Shown: in pieces, positions 2,414 through 40,001 of the stretch
How the letters are laid out: the number at the start of each line of letters is the position of its first letter
Numbering within the stretch: the first letter of the stretch is position 1
Sequence record: MT446394.1
DNA: 40,001 nucleotides
Reading direction: 5' to 3' (one strand)
DNA from: Escherichia virus TH20
Notes under the pieces: model-generated
What the model was told of the DNA's origin: nothing
Database searches by the model: none
Seen by the model: only the letters and a program-made list of their open reading frames with translations
Program-made: the position numbers and the translations under genes

Positions 2414-2674
2414 TCACTTGAATATCAGTGGGTTAGCGTGAAGATGGCTGAAGTCACCATGAGTCGTGTGCTTGATGGTTGACCGTTGGTCTATCGCCGT
2501 CCAGCCTGAGACTAAAAGTTTACCATCGTCAGTGATTGGTCGTCCACCATACGCCAGACACATCAGTTCGGACTTATGGCCCTCAGCCATCATGCGGCGC
2601 TGTAAGAACATGTCACGCTGCGCTTGCTCAACACGGCTACGGCTAGAGGGTTTGTTAGTGTATACGGTTTTCAT
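2414..2674 (-). CDS. Hypothetical early protein, 86 aa
   Basis: ATG at 2674 overlaps stop of upstream ORF (TAATG); last ORF of the early operon before gene 1; no family recognised. Confidence 0.5.
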   Translation of the reverse strand: MKTVYTNKPSSRSRVEQAQRDMFLQRRMMAEGHKSELMCLAYGGRPITDDGKLLVSGWTAIDQRSTIKHTTHGDFSHLHANPLIFK

Positions 2675-2871
2675 TACAGTTTGCTCCCAAGAGTTGCTAT
2701 ATCCCAGACGTTCGCTAAGTTGCGCATGAATCGTCCGTTAGGTTGACGTACAGTCCAGCGACCCAGACGTACATAGTTAAATTTGTAGACTTTACGCGCT
2801 TTGTTGATGTCTCTCACCAGCACGTAGGTGATAAGTCCATAGCCGAAGATACCCAGAAGTATCCAGCTCAT
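2674..2871 (-). CDS. Hypothetical early protein, 65 aa, hydrophobic N-terminus then basic tail
   Basis: ATG start overlapping upstream stop (TAATG); N-terminal WILLGIFGYGLITYVLV looks like a TM helix. Confidence 0.5.
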   Translation of the reverse strand: MSWILLGIFGYGLITYVLVRDINKARKVYKFNYVRLGRWTVRQPNGRFMRNLANVWDIATLGSKL

Positions 2872-2960
2872 TAGAATGACCCTCGCTTGATTGCGTCAAG
2901 AAGGCCCCAAGCTATCAGGAAGATGACCGGAGACAGGCATACCCAGTAACCTATATTCAT
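2871..2960 (-). CDS. Hypothetical small hydrophobic peptide, 29 aa
   Basis: Hand translation MNIGYWVCLSPVIFLIAWGLLDAIKRGSF; TAGGAG 6 nt upstream of ATG; stop overlaps next start; below track size cutoff. Confidence 0.3.
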   Translation of the reverse strand: MNIGYWVCLSPVIFLIAWGLLDAIKRGSF

Positions 2961-3030
2961 AGTTAACTCCTATCAATGTAAGTGAAAATCTTTGAGGCCA
3001 CCTATCAGTCGATGACCTCTCGTCTATCAC

Positions 3031-3156
3031 TCAGTACCCGCCTGTCAGCGTTATGGTCAGGCTATGGTGATTAGCCACGTAGCAGGCCCCGCGCTTCATC
3101 ATCTCGTAGCACCCATCGTAGAACGCCTGTTCACTACTATAAGTTATCTGGTACAT
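3031..3156 (-). CDS. Hypothetical early protein, 41 aa
   Basis: Hand translation MYQITYSSEQAFYDGCYEMMKRGACYVANHHSLTITLTGGY; GAGGA upstream; below track size cutoff. Confidence 0.3.
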   Translation of the reverse strand: MYQITYSSEQAFYDGCYEMMKRGACYVANHHSLTITLTGGY

Positions 3157-3158
3157 GT

Positions 3159-3314
3159 TTACTTGTCCTCAGAGTGTAAGCTGTCGTGTATACGCTTGCG
3201 GCCCTCATAGACCGCCTTCAGGTGACGCATAGTCGCATCATGGTTTAACTGCCCGGTCTTGACCATAATCCGGGCGTTAGCGACGTGGTGCTGGCAGAGA
3301 CCATAAGTTACCAT
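3159..3314 (-). CDS. Hypothetical early protein, 51 aa
   Basis: ATG overlaps stop of Ocr-like gene (TGATG); hand translation [51 protein letters not shown]. Confidence 0.35.
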   Translation of the reverse strand: MVTYGLCQHHVANARIMVKTGQLNHDATMRHLKAVYEGRKRIHDSLHSEDK

Positions 3315-3823
3315 CACTCGCAGTCCTCCTCAGCAGCCGCAGGGTCGAACACTACGTTATCGTTGATGTCTTCGACCTGCATGTGAAAACCTTCCTCATA
3401 GAGTTCTTTTGCACATGCAATAGCCTCGTAAAGTGATACAGATGCCTCAATTATCTCGCCTGTTCTAGTGTCAACTACCCAATATTCAGCCTTTTCGTCT
3501 TCCTCCTCAGCCTCAAACCAGACCACATCCGAGCTATTAGACACATCGTTATATAGTGCCTCATAAATGCGAGCTTGCAGTATACGCGTTACGTCCTTGG
3601 TCTCAGGCATCAGCCCAGAGTCTTCAAACTCGTGGTCGATACCATCAGCAGCCATCACCGTGAAGATCTCGTGGTAATAGTGCGGAACCTGACCGTCTAC
3701 GACTTCATGCAGCGCATCGTAATAATCATCACCTTCAGCTATTTCGTCGTACTGAATGCGCTCGTTAAACGCTTCAACAGTTGCAGCTAGCAGCTCATAG
3801 TATGCGTTAGCGTTACGTTCCAT
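3314..3823 (-). CDS. Ocr-like anti-restriction DNA-mimic protein (T7 gene 0.3 homologue) with C-terminal extension, 169 aa
   Basis: Acidic protein; N-terminal 95 aa share [42 protein letters not shown] with T7 Ocr; ATG 3823 preceded by GAGAGGA; first gene after the host-promoter region. Confidence 0.8.
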
Positions 3824-4134
3824 AATTATATCCTCTCAGTTGTTAGTGACTATCAGTCAGAGCCTTCAGATGTAGACTCAAAGACTCTGTAGTTAGTCGC
3901 TATCGGCGCACATTAAGAGTTTATCCAGATTGTTAAAGAGCGTTGAGGTCGTCAACCTCCGAGGTATTCGGTAGTTCCTAACCTTGTCTGTCACCGCGCT
4001 ATAGGTAGTGACTTAGTATCCGACAACCAGACCTTCTTCACTCGGTGAAGCCCGACCTCTCAATTTACTCTTAGTGAGGTGCTTAGAGTGTACCTGCTGC
4101 CAGTCCTTGGTAGCGTCTTGCTGCTTGGTGAATC

Positions 4135-5264: not shown

Positions 5265-5287
5265 CTTCCCTATAGTGATAGTTAAGT
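5265..5287 (-). promoter_or_regulatory. Phage-RNAP promoter (phiOR position, downstream of large terminase): ACTTAACTATCACTATAGGGAAG
   Basis: Near-consensus 23-mer on minus strand, +1 G at 5270. Confidence 0.7.
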
Positions 5288-5381: not shown

Positions 5382-7145
5382 CTAGTGGAACGTAACGTAT
5401 GACCCTAGTCCAAGCTCGTCGTCCGTATCGTGAGTTACCCGGACCCCATTGTCCCAGAACTCAGTGTGGATGGACTCGAAGCCTTTCCGTGGGTTCTCCA
5501 TCTGTTCCTCCAGCCACTCCTCAGTGACTTCACGTTCGCCTTTGTTGGCATCCTTAGCCATAGACTCAACGAAGAACTGTACACCGATAGCTAGCGCATC
5601 AAGTCGGTCATCGTGTGCCAAGGCCCCACGTTCACGAGAGATACGTGTCATCTGGTAGAAGAGAGAGTAGATAGGGTTACGAACACCATCCTTATCAGAG
5701 GCCGACTGGTAGTCTTGGACGATAGCAGCAGCGTTAACGATAAGTCGGTGAGACCCCATGATAGGCTCCAGAACGTCACAGATGCGGAGTTCTTTCTGAC
5801 CCTTACTCTTCACTTCAGTTACAGCCGCAGGATGGATACGGGCCGCTACAGGCTTGAATAGCTCAAGGTACATACCATCACCGAAGTTACCCTCAATGAC
5901 GTATTCGTTGACCTTCCACTTACGACCAATCTTAGCCAGCGCTTCAAGCGTAGAGTCTTCATAACCACCCCGCATACCACCAACTTCCATAGCGAAGATG
6001 TAGCCGTTGAGCTGGTACAGTACCGCATAGCCAGTTTCATCCTTACCACGACCACTAGGGTCAATGACCAGAATCTTCTGGGTGTACGAACTGAAGGCAG
6101 AACCTACAGTCTGATACGTGTGGTATGAGTCACCCATGAGTCCAACGTTAGGAACGTCCTCACGCTTGTTCTGAGGGTTTGGCAGCCATTGGTAGACCAT
6201 TGGGCTGGACGCTGGGTCCAAGTCGGCTACGATAAGGTCACGGAGCTTCAGAGGGTACTTCTCAGCATCACTTAGGTTCGGGTTAAGCATGAACTGTAGA
6301 GCGAAGCCGGCTTTACCATAGGACAGCTCACGTTCCTTCAGGTCAGTATCGTCGAATCGAACTTCATCGGTCGGACGCCAGTAGAAGGCCTCAGGGTCCT
6401 CTTCAAGCTCTGCCTGAAGCATAGGAGCCAGACGGTCTCCGTAAGACTGCCAGTCCTTCCTGTCGCGTGGATAACGAGCAGGCCAGATAGTAGTGGTGTA
6501 CCCACGGCCTTCCAACTCACGATACAAGGTCATCTCGTTCTGAGGAGTACCCAGATAGATGATCGTACCTCCCGGCTTCAGGATAGCGTCGAACTCTTTC
6601 ACAAGCTCTGACAGACGGTCTCGTGCGGCCTGAGTCGCTGAGTTGTTTGGAACCTCCACGTCGTCGGCAATCAGGATGTCGGCACGACTACCAGTCAACT
6701 GACCAGTGATACCAACGGACTTAACCGAAGGTGAGTGGTCTGGCTTGGCTGGTCCAACATCGAAGCTGATAACCGCATCTCGCTGCCCCTGCTTAGGTTT
6801 GAGCTCCTGAAGCTGAGGCATGAGGTCGATGATTCGCTTGATGAAGATGGAGTTAGCATCGGCTCGTTCCTTTGAGGCCGACACAATCATGAACTTCAAG
6901 TCTGGGTTGTTCCATAACTTCCAGACCACGAAGGCACACGTAATGAAGGACTTCCCGATACCACGGAACGCTTGTAGGATGAAGCGCCTGTTGCCCCCAG
7001 ACGATAGTTTCTTCGCCATGTCAATCTGACAGCGAGTCGGGACTGGGAGTGACAGAGCTTTCCACAGGACGAACAGGAAGAACACGAAGTCTGCCTTCAT
7101 ACGGGCAGTCATTAGCGCCTGACGCGCCACTAAATCTTTACTCAA
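5382..7145 (-). CDS. Terminase large subunit (T7 gp19-like), 587 aa
   Basis: Co-linear with T7 gp19 ([39 protein letters not shown]); start is TTG at 7145 with AAGGAGG 6 nt upstream, overlapping spanin stop. Confidence 0.97.
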
Positions 7146-7591
7146 TGCGTCACCTCCTTATCTTGCTGCAAGGCTCTCACAGTGTCCTGAAGGGCCTTAA
7201 TCCACTTGTCTCCTTTCACTCCGATGACGATAAGACGTTTAGCATCTCGTTCGTCAAGTTCGGCGTAACCATCAATGACGCATCGACCGTCACTTTGCGT
7301 GGTTCCACTCGTTGGTTTGACTCGGATGCGCAGCCGCTTATTGTCAGACTGAAGGTCAGCAATAATCCTATCAGTGCTGCCTTCCAGCGAGGACATTTCG
7401 TCCTGAAACCGTTTGGACACTTTGTTGACTTCATCTTGGACAGCAAGCCTTGTATCTTCCGATGCCTTAAGATTCGAGGTGTATTCTTCATTGACCTTAG
7501 CCTCCCACTTATTGTTAGCGGTGTGGTAGCCACCAGCAAACATCACTGCTGCAAGTAACCACGGAGCCGCTCTCTTTAAAAATTCGAGCAT
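7142..7591 (-). CDS. i-spanin (T7 gp18.5 / Rz-like), 149 aa
   Basis: N-terminal TM segment [14 protein letters not shown], coiled-coil body; position between small and large terminase; GGGAGGG upstream of ATG 7591. Confidence 0.85.
7216..7491 (-). CDS. o-spanin lipoprotein (T7 gp18.7 / Rz1-like) embedded out of frame in the i-spanin gene
   Basis: [25 protein letters not shown] with lipobox LTISGC aligns to remembered T7 gp18.7; start could be ATG 7491 or 7434. Confidence 0.6.
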   Translation of the reverse strand: MKNTPRILRHRKIQGLLSKMKSTKCPNGFRTKCPRWKAALIGLLLTFSLTISGCASESNQRVEPRKVTVDASLMVTPNLTNEMLNVLSSSE

Positions 7592-7644
7592 AGTTGCCCT
7601 CCCGGTTTATCAGATTTCACGTAGAGTCTCCTCCACTAGTTAGT

Positions 7645-7690
7645 GTTAACCATAAAGGCCACTACATATAGTAATGACCTTGAGTCTAAC
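7645..7690 (-). promoter_or_regulatory. Conserved stem-loop, candidate RNase III processing site (R18.5 position)
   Basis: One of three copies of AATCATAAAGGCCAC...ATGACCTTGAGTCTA; the stem needs a G-U pair on the minus-sense RNA but is a C-A mismatch on the plus strand. Confidence 0.4.
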
Positions 7691-7692
7691 AC

Positions 7693-7956
7693 TTATTGAA
7701 CACCATACCCGGTGTCATTATCTTCCGTAGATGAGAGCACCTTATCGTACTCTGCGTTCAGGGCCTCCATATCAGCCAGAGTCTTCTCGTCGACAGACAC
7801 CTTGCTTAGCACGAAGTTGTGACGAGCCAGTAGCTTCTCAATGGCGTTGTAAAGCTGAGGTGAACGCTTAGTGTCATCCCGCAGGTCTTGCAGCATGAGT
7901 CGAGCACGTTCAGTATCTAGCATCAAGAGGAACTTCTCTAAGTCCATCTGCGTCAT
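7693..7956 (-). CDS. Terminase small subunit (T7 gp18-like), 87 aa
   Basis: Size and position; ATG 7956 overlaps holin stop (ATGA). Confidence 0.8.
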   Translation of the reverse strand: MTQMDLEKFLLMLDTERARLMLQDLRDDTKRSPQLYNAIEKLLARHNFVLSKVSVDEKTLADMEALNAEYDKVLSSTEDNDTGYGVQ

Positions 7957-8147
7957 GTTTTACCCCCTCCTTTAATCGTTTTGTAGACTAGCACACCAAT
8001 CTGGACAACGGTGTACGCGATAGCTGCAACGTAGAACCATTCGTTAAGTGTGAGTCCGAAGAAGAACCGACTGGCACCATCAGCCGCAGCGGTCCCGACT
8101 ATAGGAGAGGCTTTAAGGACCTCATTCTTGAAGTCTAACTCAATCAT
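7953..8147 (-). CDS. Class II holin (T7 gp17.5-like), 64 aa
   Basis: GLTLNEWFYVAAIAYTVVQIG matches T7 gp17.5; GGAGGT upstream. Confidence 0.85.
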   Translation of the reverse strand: MIELDFKNEVLKASPIVGTAAADGASRFFFGLTLNEWFYVAAIAYTVVQIGVLVYKTIKGGGKT

Positions 8148-8255
8148 AAAACCTCCAGTTTAAAGCGGGTCGTCCGTGACCCAAAGTTGTTACCATAAGT
8201 TGGTCAGCGTGTAGTTAGCCTCTACCCCCTTCCACACACGCCGAAGAGGTTTTTT

Positions 8256-10805
8256 TTAAATGGTTGCTATTTGCCACCGTCGATCATAGTAATGGGAGAA
8301 TCCGCTATACGTCAAAGTCATATGAACAATAGCCATTGATATTGATGCTGACGGGCAGCTGACACGGATGAATGTTTGTCCGCCTCTAACTAATTTCTGC
8401 ACATTAAACCCTGACAGGCTTTTATCCCCGGCATCAAGATTACTCCATAAAGCCCCCGATGCTACGTTGGACTCGCTACTACCAGACATACTAAACATCA
8501 AACGCCCTCCAGCCTCTCTACCACCAAGTCCATTTTTGTTTACGGGTATGATTGACATTTCCCCGGCAAGGAAGCACGCACCATACCTTGATTCTTCACC
8601 GACAGTGGTTAGCAGAATGTCTACCGCTCTGTTCCACGGAAGTATGAATGTCGCCTGCTCGGTTTTTACTTCATTAAAATACGCGTCAGCTGTCACATTT
8701 ATTGACGAAAGAGTTACGCCGTCATAGGAGTTACGCCCTTCTAGTGGTGCATGGCCATATACCCTATTTCCTGCTCTGACGCTTCGGATTCTGGTGTCTG
8801 CTAATCTTGAGGCGTCAGCAGCTTTAACGAATCTGAAATTATCTCCTAAAACCAGAGAGTTACCGTAAGCATTAACGTTTCCTGACGTATTTTTGTTTAT
8901 TAAGGCAATATGGTAATCCGCCTTAACATAACCGGAGTCCAGCACAATACTTCCATTCGGCATTCTTGCCTCGCTTGTCGGCATTTCAATGAACCGAGTG
9001 ACACCAGTGTTCATTGAACTTTGAATCCAACATGACAATCCCTTAAGGGTGAACTTAAACTGGTCATCTGTTTCTGCATAATCAGAGAAATCAATACCCA
9101 CAGTGCCGTTTATGCCCTCGATACCCATGCCGTCTATTGTTACGGACCGCAACTGCCCACCTACACGATGTGGTCGTATACAACCATCAGCGGCGATATT
9201 TGACGCAGTTACATACATGACAGGGTATCCACCAGCTACCGGTTCGTACGTACTTCTGTCTATGGAATAACCCCAGAGAAAGCCATCGTCGCAGTGGTGC
9301 GCCCATATAGAATTAATGTTGGTGCTGGTATTTCCACTAAGAGCAATGCCATACTTGCAATCGTACATATAGATGTTTTCTATTGTACTGACGAAAGTAA
9401 GCGCCGGTAGCGCGAATTTATAATGATAGAACTCAACATTACGAATCGTGCACAGTTTACCACCACCACCCGATAATTCGGACCCACTTATCATCAACGG
9501 GCATCCAACATAATCTGCGTCAGCATTTCTGAAAGCAATGTTTTCAACAGAAAGGCTATGGCCCCACGAGGTACTTACGAACCCACCAGTTGTCGATGTG
9601 TATATAATGCTTTTACGGGGAGAGTCACCGATAAGGCTAAGCATTACCCCATCCCATCTATACGCGCTAATGTCAATCTGTGTGCTGCCCATATAGATTG
9701 GCTGTTCGATTAATAAAGGAATATTGTGCGCAATACTTGCGGTATACGCAGCCAGCATCGCGGCCCCGTCGTTATGGGTTCCGGAAAGGTTGGCAGCCCC
9801 CATGCTTGGCGCTTTAGGATATGGAGTACCCTGAATGGTGCTGCCGACGATATATGGAGCATCCATCCATGCGCCAAACATTTTAGGAGTAATTCCCCGA
9901 ACGTTTGATAAGTCCCTTTTCCAGCGCTTACCTCCACTAGTAATTATAACAACGCCATTATCATCATTAGTTGTGGAATCTGCTAAGTCCGCATAGAACC
10001 ACCCACCACCAGAATCACCAGACTCATTTGGTGCAATTGATGTTGTATGTTTTTCTACAAAAATGCGCTGGCCATCAACATCAGGTTCAATAGTTCTTAA
10101 TGTTGATATATCATCGCATTTGCCGATTAACTTAAATCCATCGCTTTTATTTAATTGACTCCTTAATGAAGCATCACCTACACTAACCCACGCACCTACT
10201 CCAATCCCACCGGAAGTTTCAGGAGTTGAACCAGCAGGAACGTTCTTTGGAAGAGTACCATCCCAGCGGTAATAATCACCATCCTCTTCCCATAGCAGGA
10301 CCGTGTTCCATGTTGTAACGTTGAAGCCTTTCTCGAAGGAGCGACTGGTAATATAGCCAATTCGACCAGCTTCCTTGATACTCGCAGCTATTCCTCGTGC
10401 TTCGTCCTCGCTATCCTTAGCGTTGCTAGCAGAGCTACCAGCAGCAGCGGCATATTCCTTCGCTAAGTCAACCGTTTGGTCTCGACCTTCTTCTGCAATA
10501 TGGATAGCCTGAAGCTCTGCATTGGTCAGGTCACTAGCTGTCAACACTGAGCCATTCCTGAAGTCTACCACTAAGTCAGTTCCAGTCTGACGGTGAATAC
10601 GAACGATGTCGAAACCTGATTGGTCAACCAGCATCTCAATCATCGTTGGATTAAGGAATCGGTAATCTCGACCAGCTTCCAGTACACGGTTCAGGGCAGG
10701 GTTAGAGCTATTCACCAGCGTAACAACAACAAACGTTCTGGCTAGGTAGTCGAACTCAATCCTGTACTGAGTGTTTCCTGAAGGGAATTGTGTAATCGTG
10801 GACAT
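8256..10805 (-). CDS. Tailspike: T7 gp17-like N-terminal anchor fused to a depolymerase-like beta-helix body, 849 aa
   Basis: N-terminus FDYLARTFVVVTL...VDFRNGSVLTASDL resembles T7 gp17 1-150; remainder is Gly/Ser/Thr/Asn-rich as in pectate-lyase-fold capsule depolymerases; AAGGAGG upstream. Confidence 0.9.
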   Translation of the reverse strand: MSTITQFPSGNTQYRIEFDYLARTFVVVTLVNSSNPALNRVLEAGRDYRFLNPTMIEMLVDQSGFDIVRIHRQTGTDLVVDFRNGSVLTASDLTNAELQAIHIAEEGRDQTVDLAKEYAAAAGSSASNAKDSEDEARGIAASIKEAGRIGYITSRSFEKGFNVTTWNTVLLWEEDGDYYRWDGTLPKNVPAGSTPETSGGIGVGAWVSVGDASLRSQLNKSDGFKLIGKCDDISTLRTIEPDVDGQRIFVEKHTTSIAPNESGDSGGGWFYADLADSTTNDDNGVVIITSGGKRWKRDLSNVRGITPKMFGAWMDAPYIVGSTIQGTPYPKAPSMGAANLSGTHNDGAAMLAAYTASIAHNIPLLIEQPIYMGSTQIDISAYRWDGVMLSLIGDSPRKSIIYTSTTGGFVSTSWGHSLSVENIAFRNADADYVGCPLMISGSELSGGGGKLCTIRNVEFYHYKFALPALTFVSTIENIYMYDCKYGIALSGNTSTNINSIWAHHCDDGFLWGYSIDRSTYEPVAGGYPVMYVTASNIAADGCIRPHRVGGQLRSVTIDGMGIEGINGTVGIDFSDYAETDDQFKFTLKGLSCWIQSSMNTGVTRFIEMPTSEARMPNGSIVLDSGYVKADYHIALINKNTSGNVNAYGNSLVLGDNFRFVKAADASRLADTRIRSVRAGNRVYGHAPLEGRNSYDGVTLSSINVTADAYFNEVKTEQATFILPWNRAVDILLTTVGEESRYGACFLAGEMSIIPVNKNGLGGREAGGRLMFSMSGSSESNVASGALWSNLDAGDKSLSGFNVQKLVRGGQTFIRVSCPSASISMAIVHMTLTYSGFSHYYDRRWQIATI

Positions 10806-10851: not shown

Positions 10852-10874
10852 GTTTCCTATAGTGATAGTTTAGT
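10852..10874 (-). promoter_or_regulatory. Phage-RNAP promoter upstream of tailspike gene (phi17 position): ACTAAACTATCACTATAGGAAAC
   Basis: 23-mer overlaps gene 16 stop; followed in the leader by hairpin GGAGGC-N10-GCCTCC (10831-10852) and the RBS. Confidence 0.7.
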
Positions 10875-18514: not shown

Positions 18515-18564
18515 AAGGGCCTATAGTCCCTATAGTGATAGTTAAGGTAAATCTATAGGCCCTT
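18515..18564 (-). promoter_or_regulatory. Perfect 12-bp inverted repeat (AAGGGCCTATAG / CTATAGGCCCTT) enclosing the phi13 promoter; candidate RNase III site
   Basis: Arms at 18515-18526 and 18553-18564, 26-nt loop; sits between tail tube B stop and gene 13. Confidence 0.45.
18525..18547 (-). promoter_or_regulatory. Phage-RNAP promoter (phi13 position): CCTTAACTATCACTATAGGGACT
   Basis: Near-consensus 23-mer, +1 G at 18530. Confidence 0.7.
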
Positions 18565-23208: not shown

Positions 23209-23231
23209 TCTCCCTATAGTGATAGTTTAGT
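23209..23231 (-). promoter_or_regulatory. Phage-RNAP promoter upstream of capsid gene (phi10 position): ACTAAACTATCACTATAGGGAGA
   Basis: Best match to consensus including GGGAGA start; +1 G at 23214. Confidence 0.8.
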
Positions 23232-24214: not shown

Positions 24215-24237
24215 TGTTCCTATAGTGATAGTTTAGG
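24215..24237 (-). promoter_or_regulatory. Phage-RNAP promoter (phi9 position): CCTAAACTATCACTATAGGAACA
   Basis: 23-mer overlapping portal stop, +1 G at 24220. Confidence 0.7.
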
Positions 24238-27035: not shown

Positions 27036-27058
27036 AGTCCCTATAGTGATAGTTTAGT
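27036..27058 (-). promoter_or_regulatory. Phage-RNAP promoter (phi6.5 position): ACTAAACTATCACTATAGGGACT
   Basis: Near-consensus 23-mer, +1 G at 27041. Confidence 0.7.
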
Positions 27059-28726: not shown

Positions 28727-28992
28727 TAGTGACACTCCTTCTTAACAAGTTTGCGCTCGCGGTTCGTCTTAATGACGTGTTCGCGCTTTGGAATACACTG
28801 TAGGTGCTCTATGTTGCAGCACCCACGGTTCAAGCACAAATGGTCTATCTCATAGCCATCTGGTATAGGCCCACGCTTCTGCTTCCACACCCATCGGTGG
28901 AACATGAAGGCGAACTTGTTGCCCTTCCTGTAGCTTCCCATGGGTGTGGAAGCGTAGGGTCTGGGTTCGAGGGTCAATGACACTCTTTCCAC
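28726..28992 (-). CDS. HNH endonuclease, free-standing, after the DNA polymerase gene
   Basis: GYEIDHLCLNRGCCNIEHLQCIPKREH; start uncertain (GTG 28992 inside DNAP end, or ATG 28941). Confidence 0.7.
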   Translation of the reverse strand: MERVSLTLEPRPYASTPMGSYRKGNKFAFMFHRWVWKQKRGPIPDGYEIDHLCLNRGCCNIEHLQCIPKREHVIKTNRERKLVKKECH

Positions 28993-31145
28993 GTTGGTCC
29001 AATCTTACCCTCCGTATCAAGTTCACACTTGAAGTTATAGAAGCGTCCGACCTCACGCATCGCCTCTTGAGCAATACGGACGACATCTTCTGCTATCTCC
29101 TGAGTACGACACGCTATCTGCAATTCATCGTGAATCCAAGCCATTAGCGCAAAGTCTCCGTCCCATCCGTTACCGTAACCAGCCTCTTCAAGTTTCTTCT
29201 CAGTAAGTACCATCCAGTGCTTACAGACTACCGCACCATCACCCTGAAGTAATGCGTTCAGTGCTGAGTGTGGAGACCGTATGTGGATACGGCGACCGTC
29301 AAGTCCACGCAACCAACGGCGTTTCCACTTAACGATGTTCTCTCCGTCCACCCACTTAGAGTCTGATATTAACGTATTACTCACAGCTTCCCTGAGGTCC
29401 TTGATGGCTGGTGTGCCCTCAATGAATTTCTTCATGAGAGCTGAACCTTCCTTCTTACCACCGCCGACTATCAGTCCAATCTTAGCGGCCCCTGCACCAT
29501 ACAGGAACGCATAGATGAACGTCTTAGCGTTGTTACGGAAAGCATCATGGTCGTGGTTCGACTTATCGCGTGGGACGTTAGGTGCTAACCCAGCGTTTAC
29601 TGCGTTGGCCCAGTGGATGTCACCTTCGACCACAGTCTTCGCATATGCACCACCATCAAACGGAGCCGCTCGGTTCCCCAGACAACGAAGCTCAAGACCT
29701 GAGGCATCCACACCTACTTGAATCCAAGGGTCTGGCTTACCGTCCTTCTTGTTCCACGCTGCACCGAAAGCACCACGGCAAGTCTCACCATACGGAGCAC
29801 CGTTAGCAGGGACCTGAGCCATGTTTGGTGAACTATGAGTCGCACGTCCGGTTACTGCCCCGCATGGGTTGATTGAACCGTGCATACGTCCGTCTGGACC
29901 TACAAGTTTCAACCATGCGTTCTTACCTTCAGCAGCCTGCCCGATTCTCTTCTGGACTACCAGATACTCACGGACCAGCTCTACGCAAGCCTGAGCCTCT
30001 GCGTCTGGTAACTTAACGTGTTCTAACGTCTCGTCATCGACTACAGGTTTCCCAGTGTCAGTGAAGTCCACAGGCTCCCATCCACGCTCTATCAGGACTT
30101 TCGCTAAGTGGTCGCCGCTTCCCGGATTAAACTCAACGTAAGTGATGGGCGTGAATGGTGCCCCCTCCATCGTGTCTCGTGAGTCGAACTCGCAAGGCTC
30201 CAGACCTAAGCGTTGTGCTTTGTTCTTCGGTTTCTTAAAGATGCCACCGACCTTAGGATACACGACTCGCGGATACTTCGGAAGGTCCTTACCTGTCCGT
30301 GGATGCCTGAAGAACTCCTTGCCTCCCTTTGGTGCATACCAGCTACCGAAAGTCGAGCGCAGCTTGTCCAGCAACTCCGCACGTTTGACAGTGAGTTCAC
30401 GATATAAGCCTTCGACCATCTCGGTGTTCATCGGATAGCCGTTACGTTCCATCTTCGCACAGGTCCACGCAGCATCATGTTCCAGACGCAACGCATAAAT
30501 CTGTTCGAAAGCGAACTGTTCAGACTGGAAGTAATACTTGTCAGTCAGGAACTTCTTGAACAACGCCAGTGTGACCACAACGTCTTGAACGTTATAGTCC
30601 AGCATCTCCTGAGATGGGAACAACCATTCGTCCCCAGCCTTATATTCGATACCCTCGGCCTTGCACTTGGCAACGTAATCATGTTTGTACTCACCCTTCA
30701 TCTCACCGAGACGATAACCCCAAGCCTCAAGAGACTGACGTCCCATCATCTTAGGTGGCAGACGACCCGCTTTCACCGCGCCCATGTCTGAGAACTTAAT
30801 GTTTGGATACATCAAGCGGCCCAGCACCAAGGTATCAATCATCTTGTGTTTCGGGAAGTTAAAACGTTTCCCAAAGTACAGACGCTTCAGCTTGTCTATA
30901 GCCGGGACGTCATAGTTGATACCATTATGGAAGACAAGCATACCATCAGGTGATGCGGCAATCTCTTCCACCTTCTGCACATACTCTTTGAAGCCACCGA
31001 CGATACCGACCATCGGAGCTACCCCATACTTAAGGGTCTCATTCGACTCGGCATTAATCAGGACCCCACAGTGAAACTGGGACACGGTGTCAAGGAGACC
31101 GTTGGTCTCGATGTCCGAACCCCAAATATCCTTAAGGTCAAACAT
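28974..31145 (-). CDS. DNA polymerase (T7 gp5-like), 723 aa
   Basis: Co-linear with T7 gp5 end to end; real start ATG 31145 (GGAGGA 6 nt upstream); track start 31181 is GTG inside the stem-loop. Confidence 0.97.
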   Translation of the reverse strand: MFDLKDIWGSDIETNGLLDTVSQFHCGVLINAESNETLKYGVAPMVGIVGGFKEYVQKVEEIAASPDGMLVFHNGINYDVPAIDKLKRLYFGKRFNFPKHKMIDTLVLGRLMYPNIKFSDMGAVKAGRLPPKMMGRQSLEAWGYRLGEMKGEYKHDYVAKCKAEGIEYKAGDEWLFPSQEMLDYNVQDVVVTLALFKKFLTDKYYFQSEQFAFEQIYALRLEHDAAWTCAKMERNGYPMNTEMVEGLYRELTVKRAELLDKLRSTFGSWYAPKGGKEFFRHPRTGKDLPKYPRVVYPKVGGIFKKPKNKAQRLGLEPCEFDSRDTMEGAPFTPITYVEFNPGSGDHLAKVLIERGWEPVDFTDTGKPVVDDETLEHVKLPDAEAQACVELVREYLVVQKRIGQAAEGKNAWLKLVGPDGRMHGSINPCGAVTGRATHSSPNMAQVPANGAPYGETCRGAFGAAWNKKDGKPDPWIQVGVDASGLELRCLGNRAAPFDGGAYAKTVVEGDIHWANAVNAGLAPNVPRDKSNHDHDAFRNNAKTFIYAFLYGAGAAKIGLIVGGGKKEGSALMKKFIEGTPAIKDLREAVSNTLISDSKWVDGENIVKWKRRWLRGLDGRRIHIRSPHSALNALLQGDGAVVCKHWMVLTEKKLEEAGYGNGWDGDFALMAWIHDELQIACRTQEIAEDVVRIAQEAMREVGRFYNFKCELDTEGKIGPTWKECH

Positions 31146-31160
31146 GGTTAATCCTCCGTT

Positions 31161-31205
31161 TAGTCTAATCATAAAGGCCACTCGATGTGAATGACCTTGA
31201 GTCTA
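31161..31205 (-). promoter_or_regulatory. Conserved stem-loop, candidate RNase III site upstream of DNA polymerase gene
   Basis: Second copy of AATCATAAAGGCCAC...ATGACCTTGAGTCTA. Confidence 0.4.
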
Positions 31206-31208
31206 GAC

Positions 31209-33088
<1,880 letters not shown>

Positions 33089-33136: not shown

Positions 33137-33159
33137 CATCCCTAAGGTGATAGTTTAGG
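33137..33159 (-). promoter_or_regulatory. Phage-promoter-like site with altered melting region (CACCTTAGGG instead of CACTATAGGG) upstream of primase-helicase gene
   Basis: Upstream half CCTAAACTATCAC is consensus; -4/-3 changed; function uncertain. Confidence 0.35.
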
Positions 33160-35773: not shown

Positions 35774-35796
35774 CTGTCCTACAGTGATAGTTTAGG
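35774..35796 (-). promoter_or_regulatory. Phage-promoter-like site with CACTGTAGGA core (phi2.5 position)
   Basis: Upstream half consensus; -3 A to G; overlaps stop of gp2-like gene. Confidence 0.5.
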
Positions 35797-36647: not shown

Positions 36648-36670
36648 TTGTCCTATAGTGATAGCTTAGG
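36648..36670 (-). promoter_or_regulatory. Phage-RNAP promoter (phi1.5/1.6 position): CCTAAGCTATCACTATAGGACAA
   Basis: One mismatch upstream of core; +1 G at 36653. Confidence 0.6.
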
Positions 36671-36909: not shown

Positions 36910-37988
36910 GACTTCACCGTTGGGTTGTCTTCGGTTCCACGCCAGCACTTGAAGCTGGGGTGACGAAGGGAGCCATCAGGGAACCGCTCCATGAAGAGGA
37001 CTTCACACTGCCAGCCTTCGTATGGGTTATCGAAGCAAGGTTCGTTACCACCAATGCCGTACGGCGCAAAGATGCCAACCGCAGCAAGCGTGTCCTCCTT
37101 GACCTTAGCCGTAAACTCGTCCTTCTGTTCTTCAGTCAGACCGCAGGCGTTGACCACCATGCCATCCTCCAGTAGAACCTCAAAGCCGATGACCTTACCT
37201 TCGTTAGCCTTACCCTGAGTCCCCCACACGAGGCCACACACGGTCCCGTCGATTGTCTCCTCAGGCTTCATTTTCCACATGCCTGACTTCTTGCCACGCT
37301 TCCACTTACCCAGCGGGTCTTTGACTATCAGACCCTCGTGTCCTTCCAGACGCTTCTCTTCGTACAGGGAGTTGAGCGACTCAAGGTCATAGACCGTGTG
37401 TGACTCAGACAGAACCCAGTCGATTTCCGGGAAGTATTTCTGGAGGAGAGGGACGATAGCTTCGGCCTTCAGGCGTGTGACGCTATGGATAGGACCTTCT
37501 GCTTTCGGGTCGGCTATGGTCGTCATGTCGACGACACCGTAGACCACAACCTGAAGTCGGGACCGGGCGACCCAGAACGGGACCTTCTTGCCACGGCCCT
37601 GATAGCATTCAGCGAACGCCTCGTTGTTAGGCTTCAGCCACTTCGTTCGGATGAGACCTGAGGAGGTGTTGAAGTCCACACCTTTGACCATTACCTCGCC
37701 ATCAATCATCAAGCCCACGCCTTCGTAGCCAGCTTGACGAAGGAACCATCGCCAGTCAGCTTGGGTCCACGCATTCCCTAACTCAGAGTTCATCCACTCC
37801 AAGGCTGGAAGAGGTTTAGACTCACGGCTCAGCCAATAGGTCTCACCTTCACGCAGGACCGGGAGGTTCAACCGGACACCATCGTACTTCACTTCAGCTT
37901 CCAGAGACCCGGCTGCTTCCAGTGCCTTCTTAACACCAGACTCAGAGTAATCTACAGCGCGGTGCGGGTTGGTTTTGATAGTTGTCAT
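36906..37988 (-). CDS. ATP-dependent DNA ligase (T7 gp1.3-like), 360 aa
   Basis: IKTNP, adenylation motif KYDGVR, EGLIVKDP, KRGKKSGxWKMKPE, GSLRHPSF match T7 ligase; preferred start ATG 37988 overlapping gp1.2 stop (TAATG). Confidence 0.95.
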   Translation of the reverse strand: MTTIKTNPHRAVDYSESGVKKALEAAGSLEAEVKYDGVRLNLPVLREGETYWLSRESKPLPALEWMNSELGNAWTQADWRWFLRQAGYEGVGLMIDGEVMVKGVDFNTSSGLIRTKWLKPNNEAFAECYQGRGKKVPFWVARSRLQVVVYGVVDMTTIADPKAEGPIHSVTRLKAEAIVPLLQKYFPEIDWVLSESHTVYDLESLNSLYEEKRLEGHEGLIVKDPLGKWKRGKKSGMWKMKPEETIDGTVCGLVWGTQGKANEGKVIGFEVLLEDGMVVNACGLTEEQKDEFTAKVKEDTLAAVGIFAPYGIGGNEPCFDNPYEGWQCEVLFMERFPDGSLRHPSFKCWRGTEDNPTVKS

Positions 37989-38251
37989 TATGCTTTGCTC
38001 CATGTGTCGATATGGTCAGCGAGACCGTTGAGGTAGTCTGTTGCAGTATTATACAGCACGTCTTCATCGTAGTGTGCGAAGGTCTCAAGCGCGAAGATGT
38101 TACCAGCTCGGTCCTCCACCCTGAGTTTCATGCACTCTTGGCACGACACATGGTCTTGAAACTCCTGAGATATAACAGCGAAGTCTAACTGATAAAGCCT
38201 GTTACACGCTGCTTTGAAAGCGTTGAGGTTGCCACTATAAAGTCGGCCCAT
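37988..38251 (-). CDS. dGTP triphosphohydrolase inhibitor (T7 gp1.2-like), 87 aa
   Basis: MGRLYSGNLxAFKAA.N.L.QLD.AVI and HxDEDVL.N..TD.LN match T7 gp1.2. Confidence 0.85.
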   Translation of the reverse strand: MGRLYSGNLNAFKAACNRLYQLDFAVISQEFQDHVSCQECMKLRVEDRAGNIFALETFAHYDEDVLYNTATDYLNGLADHIDTWSKA

Positions 38252-38255
38252 TTGG

Positions 38256-38435
38256 TTATGCTCCTACGAAGTATTTCTCTTGGTTGACCAGAGAGTCTTT
38301 ACCTTCAGCGTTTCGGAAAGCTCCCTTCACGCCACCACCACGTTTAGTCTTGTTCAGCTTGCGGCCCTTAGGAATGTAACCTTCAGTCTGCTGGCGTTCA
38401 CGGATGCGCTCAAAGTTGATAGTGTTCTGATACAT
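38256..38435 (-). CDS. T7 gp1.1-like small basic protein, 59 aa
   Basis: Hand translation; KGRKLNKTKR identical to remembered T7 gp1.1 segment; GGAGA upstream. Confidence 0.6.
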   Translation of the reverse strand: MYQNTINFERIRERQQTEGYIPKGRKLNKTKRGGGVKGAFRNAEGKDSLVNQEKYFVGA

Positions 38436-38475
38436 ATGGCTAAATCTCCAGTAATTTACGTTTAGTAGTAAGGGT

Positions 38476-38520
38476 TAATCATGAAGGCCACGACTTTGAG
38501 TCATGACCTTTAGTCTAATC
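38476..38520 (-). promoter_or_regulatory. Conserved stem-loop, candidate RNase III site (R1.1 position)
   Basis: Third copy of AATCAT(A/G)AAGGCCAC...ATGACCTT(G/T)AGTCTA. Confidence 0.4.
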
Positions 38521-38538
38521 CTATAGTGATAGTTTAGG
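38516..38538 (-). promoter_or_regulatory. Phage-RNAP promoter (phi1.1 position): CCTAAACTATCACTATAGGATTA
   Basis: Near-consensus 23-mer, +1 G at 38521. Confidence 0.7.
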
Positions 38539-38828: not shown

Positions 38829-40001
38829 TTAAGCGAATGCAAAGTCTGAAGACAAGATGTCTTCGATATTCAGTTTACCTTTCTTCGGAAGCTCTGGCAA
38901 CTTATCGCGCTGGCTCTCATGAAGCTGGTATTCAAACTGCTCATAGAAGTCAAGCAGCACATCGTTGTCTCGGTAGGTCTCGACCATCGTCTCACGGACA
39001 CCACGGAACAGATACTCAGCGTCAGCCGGGATGGTCCCGAAGCTATCATGAATCACTGCGAATGACATCACGTCATACTTGCGATGAGTGTGGACTACAG
39101 TCTTGCGTAGGTGGCTACCATCTTGTGAGTGGACGAAGTTCGGGCTAATGCCTGACTCCTGCTTGTGCTTGTCCAGCTCTTTCTTCGTGCCTTTGTTGAC
39201 GGTAGGCTGAAGGTTGAATGACCCTAAGAACATCAGGTTCAGACGAGTGGTATCCTTCTTGCGGTATTCCTGCCAGACCGGGAAACCATCAGGTGTGACC
39301 CAGTGTACCGGAAGGCAAGGCTTCAGGATTTCACCCGTCTTCTTGTCCTTCACTTCAGCAGCCAGCAGCTTGGCAGCACCTTGAAGCCACTTCATAGCGT
39401 CTACCGCAGCAACTACGGTCACGCTCACAGCTTCCCAAATCATCTTAGCCATGAATCGGGACGCTTGGCTTGGCTCGGTGAACATAGCTCCAGACCCTGC
39501 GTCAATTGCGGGCATCACGATGTCCTCGTAAACTTGGTCTGCGAAGCCGTACTCTTTCGACCCGTAGGCCAGAGTCATGACTGAGCGCTTAGTAACCTTG
39601 CGTGACATACCGTAAGTCAGCCACTGCCGGGCCAGCTCTCGTGTCCCCAGCTTGAGACGTTCGGTAATCTCACCAGTTTTCTTGTCCTCGTGAGTTACCA
39701 TCTCGTTGTCCGTGCCGTTAACCAACAGGACTTTAAGCTCCTCCTCAATGCGGTCAGACACGATGCGGTAGATGTCTTGGACCTTACCGGAAGGCGTCAG
39801 GTTTACTGCATGTCCACCGATGTGATCACGAAGCATCGCGCTGAAGTGCTGAATCCCAGAGCAGGACCCATCGAAAGCTATCGGCAGCGAGCAGGAGTAA
39901 GACAAACCGTGGTGCATTACGCCAGCATACTCGAAGCAGAACGCTAGGAAGCAGAACGGAGAGTCTAACTTACCCCACCACTCAATGCTGTCCATCGGTG
40001 C
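38829..40001 (-). CDS. T7-type RNA polymerase (gene 1), C-terminal 390 codons plus stop; the part above 39194 duplicates 1-807
   Basis: Translation ends ...DILSSDFAFA as T7 RNAP; contains HQESGI.PNFVHSQDGSHLR and IHDSFGT active-site region; stop at 38829. Confidence 0.95.
   Translation of the reverse strand, partial: APMDSIEWWGKLDSPFCFLAFCFEYAGVMHHGLSYSCSLPIAFDGSCSGIQHFSAMLRDHIGGHAVNLTPSGKVQDIYRIVSDRIEEELKVLLVNGTDNEMVTHEDKKTGEITERLKLGTRELARQWLTYGMSRKVTKRSVMTLAYGSKEYGFADQVYEDIVMPAIDAGSGAMFTEPSQASRFMAKMIWEAVSVTVVAAVDAMKWLQGAAKLLAAEVKDKKTGEILKPCLPVHWVTPDGFPVWQEYRKKDTTRLNLMFLGSFNLQPTVNKGTKKELDKHKQESGISPNFVHSQDGSHLRKTVVHTHRKYDVMSFAVIHDSFGTIPADAEYLFRGVRETMVETYRDNDVLLDFYEQFEYQLHESQRDKLPELPKKGKLNIEDILSSDFAFA
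39195..40001. repeat. Window-end duplication, copy 2 (same sequence as 1-807)
   Basis: See copy 1. Confidence 0.9.

Follow-up and report, generated by a model that had tools for sequence, protein, structure and literature searches.

What is the function of a short palindrome that recurs almost unchanged in the genome of Escherichia virus TH20, and is it read as DNA or as RNA? The window that we analysed is a stretch of 40,001 nucleotides (sequence record MT446394.1), for which the original prediction had placed three near-identical stem-loop elements at 7645-7690, 31161-31205 and 38476-38520 (hereafter sites 1, 2 and 3). All three are indeed present there. The pattern AAGGCCAC-N(6-20)-ATGACCTT matches the window three times (7655-7681, 31174-31198 and 38484-38510), whereas not one of 100 dinucleotide-preserving shuffles contained a match (mean 0.00, maximum 0). 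The flanks quoted as shared are nearly but not fully identical: site 2 is an exact match to AATCATAAAGGCCAC...ATGACCTTGAGTCTA, site 1 has one difference (flank AACCAT) and site 3 has two (flanks CATGAAGG and CCTTTAG).

Positions 1-807 of the window are an exact repeat of positions 39195-40001 (807 identical bases), so that the window represents one 39,194-bp genome wrapped around. This wrapped genome is circularly permuted with respect to the usual T7-type map, and its RNA polymerase gene (about 893 codons, minus strand) spans the wrap junction, from ~2316 down to 38829. Its relatives in megablast searches are Escherichia phages of the genus Kayfunavirus (K1F-like, related to T7), to which its nucleotide identity is ~93-94% in the replication region, rising to as much as 99% near the genes for lysis and packaging. 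When we searched for the phage promoter consensus CTAAACTATCACTATAGG, we found 12 matches in the window against 0.05 expected by chance. Eleven of them are credible and all are in minus-strand sense, at 2390-2407, 5269-5286, 10856-10873, 18529-18546, 23213-23230, 24219-24236, 27040-27057, 33141-33158, 35778-35795, 36652-36669 and 38520-38537; the twelfth (2950-2967), with three mismatches, is probably a chance match. Since the long ORFs and the 11 credible promoters all lie on the minus strand, it is the minus-sense RNA that serves as messenger.

On this RNA the stem AAGGUCA/UGGCCUU is uninterrupted and makes use of a U.G wobble. The suggestion that a 7-bp stem is complete on the minus-sense RNA only was correct as regards the asymmetry, but the 7 bp turned out to be the core alone. 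The entire hairpin measures ~50 nt and consists of an upper stem of 10-12 bp and a lower stem of 7-9 bp, separated by an asymmetric internal loop that reads ACUC on its 5' and UAUGA on its 3' side in the minus-sense RNA, and each upper stem contains two U.G wobbles, both of which become C.A mismatches on the plus strand. Folding of the minus-sense strand, which had been proposed as a check, gave a complete stem, and the sense strand folded better than its complement at all three sites. Over identical intervals the minus-sense and plus-sense energies were -23.4 versus -12.5 kcal/mol at site 1, -19.4 versus -10.0 kcal/mol at site 2, and -18.6 versus -18.1 kcal/mol at site 3, where the energy asymmetry is small, yet the stem is uninterrupted on the minus-sense RNA only. 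The folding z-scores of single copies are only moderate (-2.1 to -3.1); the significance of the element comes from its repetition, homology and covariation.

The three hairpins are all on the minus strand, and their scores with a covariance model range from 63 to 70 bits. Site 1 (7642..7693; model match 7628-7703, 70.1 bits, E 1e-13) folds with 21 pairs, four of them G.U, and its lower stem begins at the final base of the gene 18 stop codon. It occupies the junction between gene 18, encoding the terminase small subunit (7693..7956, minus; phrog_1351, E 9.9e-35), and gene 18.5, encoding an Rz-like spanin (7142..7591, minus; phrog_1327, E 6.3e-60), and is equivalent to T7 R18.5 in both position and sequence, as had been predicted. 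Site 2 (31162..31209; match 31147-31220, 64.9 bits, E 1.6e-12) lies directly upstream of gene 5, the DNA polymerase gene (28974..31145, minus; phrog_17, E 1e-164), with the hairpin ending 16 nt before the start codon; for the small ORF upstream of this site we found no T7 homologue. The equation of site 2 with T7 R4.7 holds for the position, which is equivalent, but the label can be positional only because this phage has no gene 4.7, and for the same reason the mid-genome site stands directly before gene 5 here. Site 3 (38471..38522; match 38457-38532, 62.7 bits, E 5.4e-12) has an uninterrupted upper stem of 12 bp and lies between a phage promoter (38520..38537, minus, a match to the consensus) and a gene 1.1-like ORF (38256..38435, minus; phrog_4383, E 4.8e-42), which in tblastn resembles T7 gene 1.1 only weakly (40.5% identity over 37 aa, E 0.008) and is followed by a homologue of the gene 1.2 dGTPase inhibitor (37988-38251; phrog_2949). 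This order, with the site after the promoter and before the gene 1.1-like ORF and gene 1.2, bears out the predicted correspondence to T7 R1.1.

For decades, textbooks have described the RNase III sites of phages of the T7 group. The T7 records NC_001604 and V01146 list no RNase III sites, and the seven T7 cleavage coordinates that we used go back to Dunn & Studier 1983. Around all seven, the T7 sequence shows ACTCAAGGTC...GTGGCCTTTATGATT and the cut falls in one and the same alignment column; it is this agreement that supports the coordinates. The three window sites could be aligned column for column with the seven T7 sites (R0.3, R0.5, R1, R1.1, R1.3, R4.7 and R18.5), all having in common (U)AGACUCAAGGUC...GUGGCCUUUAUGAUU, and the alignment of the ten sequences contains 11 invariant and 10 near-invariant columns. 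By the conserved ACUCAAGGUC...GUGGCCUUUAUGAUU, the hairpins are homologous to the RNase III signals mapped experimentally in T7. The consensus fold of the ten has 18 pairs, 10 of which show compensatory changes, and is built of a 9-bp lower stem and an upper stem of 9 bp or more, with a 4-nt/5-nt internal loop between them. The canonical T7 sites thus show the same conserved sequence, the same layout of lower stem, internal loop and upper stem, and the same two U.G wobbles. They are also placed in the same way, in intergenic spacers on the transcribed strand and at syntenic places (one downstream of gene 18, one ahead of the gene 5 region and one, beside a phage promoter, in the spacer that separates genes 1 and 1.1). 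Unlike in T7, the apical loops and the lower-stem sequences differ here, though they covary.

The likeness is closest between site 2 and T7 R1.1. The two have the same 10-bp upper stem (AAGGUCAUUC/GAGUGGCCUU) and the same 3' strand of the internal loop, UAUGAUU; however, R1.1 has a GCAA tetraloop where site 2 has the apical loop ACAUC, and the lower stem of site 2 (GGUCUAG/UUAGACU) is different from that of R1.1. Sites 1 and 3 have the first eight upper-stem base pairs in common with R1.1 (AAGGUCAU/GUGGCCUU). R1.1 RNA and its minimal derivative are the standard in-vitro substrates of E. coli RNase III; in the minimal form, both recognition boxes, proximal and distal, lie in this upper stem, and the boxes of R1.1 have been mapped biochemically (PMC1540722). 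Judged by the identity of their upper stems, the window sites have recognition boxes like those of R1.1, which would suit the E. coli enzyme. [quoted passage not shown] The prediction of an RNA-level RNase III element on the minus strand agrees with the sequence, the position and the conservation of the sites. Repetition, an RNA-strand-specific fold, homology to T7 sites, synteny and covariation are what we observed in these hairpins, and judging from their sequences they are very probably T7-type RNase III processing signals; RNase III as the enzyme, the exact position of the cut and any effects on mRNA stability or translation would carry over from T7.

The alignment of the three window and seven T7 sites was used to build the covariance model, which recovered T7 R6.5, a site left out of its building, and found six syntenic copies in K1F, in whose record these sites are unannotated. 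Orthologous hairpins are thus present in other sequenced members of Kayfunavirus (K1F, at these six places, Vec13 and others). Rfam gave no match in the whole window at gathering thresholds and none at E up to 10 for 7600-7730, and appears to have no model for these sites. In the window, the covariance model detected no counterpart of T7 R1.3, since genes 1.2 and 1.3 (ligase) overlap here, and none of the promoter-overlapping T7 sites R3.8, R6.5 and R13. We also observed that relatives of ~41 kb (loci L221-L275, ~941-1023) have a second match ~270 nt downstream of gene 1.1; this is the position of T7 R1.3, at which the window has none.

With the same model, two further copies came to light in the early region (2967-3041 and 3831-3911), both diverged and both on the minus strand. 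Three near-identical elements had been claimed, and three there are, but the copies of the element number at least five. The fourth, R0.5-like copy (2979..3033, minus; match 2967-3041, 37.7 bits, E 3.7e-6) keeps the upper stem AGGUCAUC/GGUGGCCU, has a larger internal loop and folds at -20.6 kcal/mol versus -9.5 for the antisense; it lies upstream of a short ORF starting at ~2961 and has a syntenic match in K1F at 1758-1832. The fifth, R0.3-like copy (3844..3902, minus) is weaker (match 3831-3911, 25.2 bits, with an E of 0.003 from a rough calibration). It stands directly upstream of the ocr-like gene 0.3 (3823..3314, minus) and corresponds to a K1F match at 1022-1096, itself upstream of the K1F gene 0.3. 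The lower stem and the loop layout are kept in this copy but the upper-stem sequence differs, and the fold, at -20.8 kcal/mol, has a z-score of only -1.0. All five copies are oriented alike relative to transcription (minus, the coding strand) and lie in intergenic spacers at positions syntenic with T7 sites. The sense strand folds better than the antisense at every one of them, by ~9-11 kcal/mol at three copies, 3.4 at the gene 0.3 copy and 0.5 at site 3.

A further candidate, an R1-like site before the RNA polymerase gene, consists of the half-motif ACUCAAGGUC after the 2390-2407 promoter; it was not accepted because its fold is weak (-12.7 kcal/mol, z -0.5) and it has no covariance-model score. 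The transcript from this promoter, which is directly upstream of the RNA polymerase gene (2316-2407, minus), would begin with GGACUCAAGGUC, which corresponds to the 5' half of the motif, and this is followed by the short repeats AAGUGAAAGAC and CUUUAAGU, in two copies each. At most, the 2316-2407 region may be a degenerate R1-like site.

In order to follow the element in relatives, we scanned IMG/VR with the pattern AAGGTC-N(8-22)-GTGGCCTT. The matches were mostly due to chance, re-scoring with the covariance model leaving three real sites among the 80 loci listed, and orthologous loci were therefore gathered from IMG/VR via their flanking proteins. The hairpin after gene 18 is present in all 23 close relatives, and one IMG/VR locus scores as site 1 does (70.1 bits). 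Of 24 relatives with at least 72% identity in the N-terminus of the DNA polymerase, 23 have it before the polymerase gene, and nearly all of the 78 related loci collected around gene 1.1 show a strong match directly ahead of that gene. The upper-stem pairs are 99-100% paired in the three orthologue sets, and the substitutions that occur are compensated (C-G to U-A, A-U to G-C, U-A to C-G), in contrast to the uncompensated, stem-breaking changes that would have spoken against the original prediction. Overall, 89-92% of cells are paired in the three sets, compared with at most 59% when the partners are slid, and in the gene 1.1 set the corresponding values are 91.6% and at most 51%; because the alignments are model-fitted and the sequences closely related, these counts lean towards structure. 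Five of the nine lower-stem pairs of the gene 1.1 set change on both sides, and its two U.G wobbles are kept in 82 and 78, respectively, of the 83 distinct sequences. In more distant T7-like contigs (terminase small subunit ~52-56% identical) no site is detectable after gene 18, so that the modelled family is confined to those of the sampled genomes that are more closely related to T7. As an additional observation, in several relatives (loci L172-L181, ~631-703) a promoter (..CTATCACTGTAGGA) abuts the hairpin before the DNA polymerase gene, an arrangement that resembles site 3; site 2 has no promoter there.

If the T7 sites are taken as a guide, the minus-strand genes would be transcribed as long polycistronic RNAs in which each signal would fold into its ~50-nt hairpin. 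The lower and upper stems, which amount to about two helical turns of double-stranded RNA, would then be bound by the host RNase III, an endonuclease specific for double strands. We propose that the cut is confined to a single strand because of the asymmetric internal loop; internal loops restrict RNase III cleavage to one phosphodiester (PMC1540722). From the T7 alignment, the cut is predicted on the minus strand after the U of CCUUUAU/G (the slash marks the cut), that is between 7652 and 7651 at site 1 (CCUUUAU/GGUU), between 31171 and 31170 at site 2 (CCUUUAU/GAUU) and between 38481 and 38480 at site 3 (CCUUCAU/GAUU). The upstream message would be left with a stable 3' hairpin, which would shield it from 3'-to-5' exonucleases, as such hairpins do in processed RNAs (PMC1540722), and the 5' end of the downstream message would be fixed at a point 25-60 nt ahead of its start codon. 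Cleavage at site 1 would thus give a 60-nt leader ahead of the gene 18.5 ATG, with the gene 18 mRNA terminating in the hairpin left behind. At site 2 the leader would measure 25 nt and contain the ribosome-binding sequence GGAGGA before the ATG at 31145, and at site 3 it would measure 45 nt before the ATG at 38435. Transcripts from the 38520-38537 promoter would start at ~G38521, within the 5' arm of the site 3 lower stem.

The hairpins could also act as RNA without any involvement of RNase III, as a stabilising stem-loop, a protein-binding site or a translational operator. [quoted passage not shown] However, the nearly identical T7 sequences are classic, biochemically characterised RNase III substrates (PMC1540722), and the hairpins do not include the ribosome-binding sites of the genes downstream (at site 2, for instance, GGAGGA is found 5 nt past the lower stem), so that there is no obvious operator arrangement. 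Given the near identity to characterised substrates, an RNase III-independent role would seem unnecessary from the sequences; we consider it very unlikely and rejected it as the primary function. The strictness of the conservation might instead reflect a second constraint acting in addition to RNase III processing, since it is stricter than RNase III recognition is thought to need: the upper stem is identical, the wobbles are invariant and ACUC/UAUGA is near-invariant across paralogues and across T7-, K1F- and ~41-kb T7-like genomes. We regard such an added constraint as improbable, though less so than a role independent of the enzyme. The binding of the loop by a phage or host factor could be its cause, as could concerted evolution through recombination of the copies with one another at gene-module borders, or an interplay with DNA-hairpin-sensing defences such as Lamassu/DdmABC.

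The last of these candidates touches on a DNA-level explanation, in which the palindromes would act mainly as DNA hairpins or cruciforms and serve, for example, as part of a replication origin, as a recombination signal or as a defence trigger. When cloned, a T7-derived sequence that includes an RNase III site, from a fragment described as belonging to the primary replication origin, causes cell death that depends on DdmABC (Lamassu), and comparable palindromes of a T7-like vibriophage do so too; the triggering is independent of orientation and is weakened by stem-breaking mutations (PMC11707656). Such sequences can therefore be read as DNA. Being sensed by a defence system is nevertheless a cost for the phage and not a function, and the same study knows of no role for these structures in DNA (PMC11707656). 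A DNA hairpin would favour Watson-Crick pairs at the two wobble positions, but the U.G wobbles, which are C.A on the opposite strand, have been retained in nearly all of the orthologues counted above instead of drifting towards such pairs. The folding of the sense RNA is much stronger at three of the five sites, and the five copies share one orientation relative to transcription. The conserved wobbles and the uniform orientation point to selection on the sense RNA; together with the sense-RNA folding, they led us to reject a DNA hairpin as the primary function, a possibility that we rate as highly improbable.

Equally improbable, in our estimate, is that the hairpins are rho-independent terminators and close transcription units at three points, downstream of gene 18, of the small ORF that precedes gene 5 and of the RNA polymerase region. 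Like intrinsic terminators, they are G+C-containing hairpins followed by a few U residues, and in the record of the relative vB_EcoA_ASO2B (MZ726794.1) the orthologous gene 18/18.5 hairpin is indeed annotated as a rho-independent terminator on the basis of WebGeSTer and TranstermHP (locus L277 744-780, which is MZ726794.1 36793-36829, orthologous to 7642-7693). Taking the G+C core GGUCAU..GUGGCC alone as the stem leaves a tail, UUUAUGGU, with five U in eight positions. However, the first two U of this tail are themselves base-paired, to the conserved AA that forms the foot of the upper stem, the remainder belongs to the conserved internal loop and the covarying lower stem, which a terminator would not need, and a consensus terminator scan flagged none of the three hairpins, with no qualifying U tract. 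The promoter map argues in the same direction. There is no phage promoter from site 1 to genes 18.5 and 19, the nearest being at 10856 upstream and at 5269 downstream, and none from site 2 to the DNA polymerase gene, for which the nearest are at 33141 upstream and at 27040 downstream. Efficient termination would silence the terminase large subunit (gene 19) and the DNA polymerase, and since these essential downstream genes have no promoter of their own, the hairpins cannot be efficient terminators. A terminator as primary function was thus rejected by scan, structure and promoter map, and the label in vB_EcoA_ASO2B is probably that of a mislabelled RNase III site.

Elements of this kind are already known, and the phage itself has close relatives among those sequenced, so that the value of recognising the element as an RNase III signal lies mainly in annotation, as the hairpins are unannotated in K1F and carry a terminator label in at least one relative. 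Such a label would suggest, wrongly, that terminase and spanin are not transcribed together. Among the papers searched, none joined 'RNase III' and 'Kayfunavirus'. The covariance model finds the hairpins reliably where Rfam offers no model, and the map of sites could be useful for engineering K1F-like phages or for modelling their gene expression, as well as in view of the reports of such palindromes as triggers of a Lamassu-type defence system.

Two further features of the genome were observed in passing. The interval from the ocr-like gene 0.3 to the gene for the RNA polymerase (2414-3317, minus) contains small ORFs only, none of them long enough for a protein kinase of the T7 gene 0.7 type, and the K1F record likewise has no gene 0.7-sized ORF between its gene 0.3 and RNA polymerase gene; in T7 infection, the gene 0.7-type protein kinase has been reported to increase RNase III activity. 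In the gene 17 position, an 849-aa minus-strand ORF (8256-10805) corresponds to the tail fibre or tailspike. With positions 7000-9000 as megablast query, the matches to the closest relatives end at ~8229, so that the 3' part of this gene is unlike theirs, as would be expected for an exchanged host-range module.
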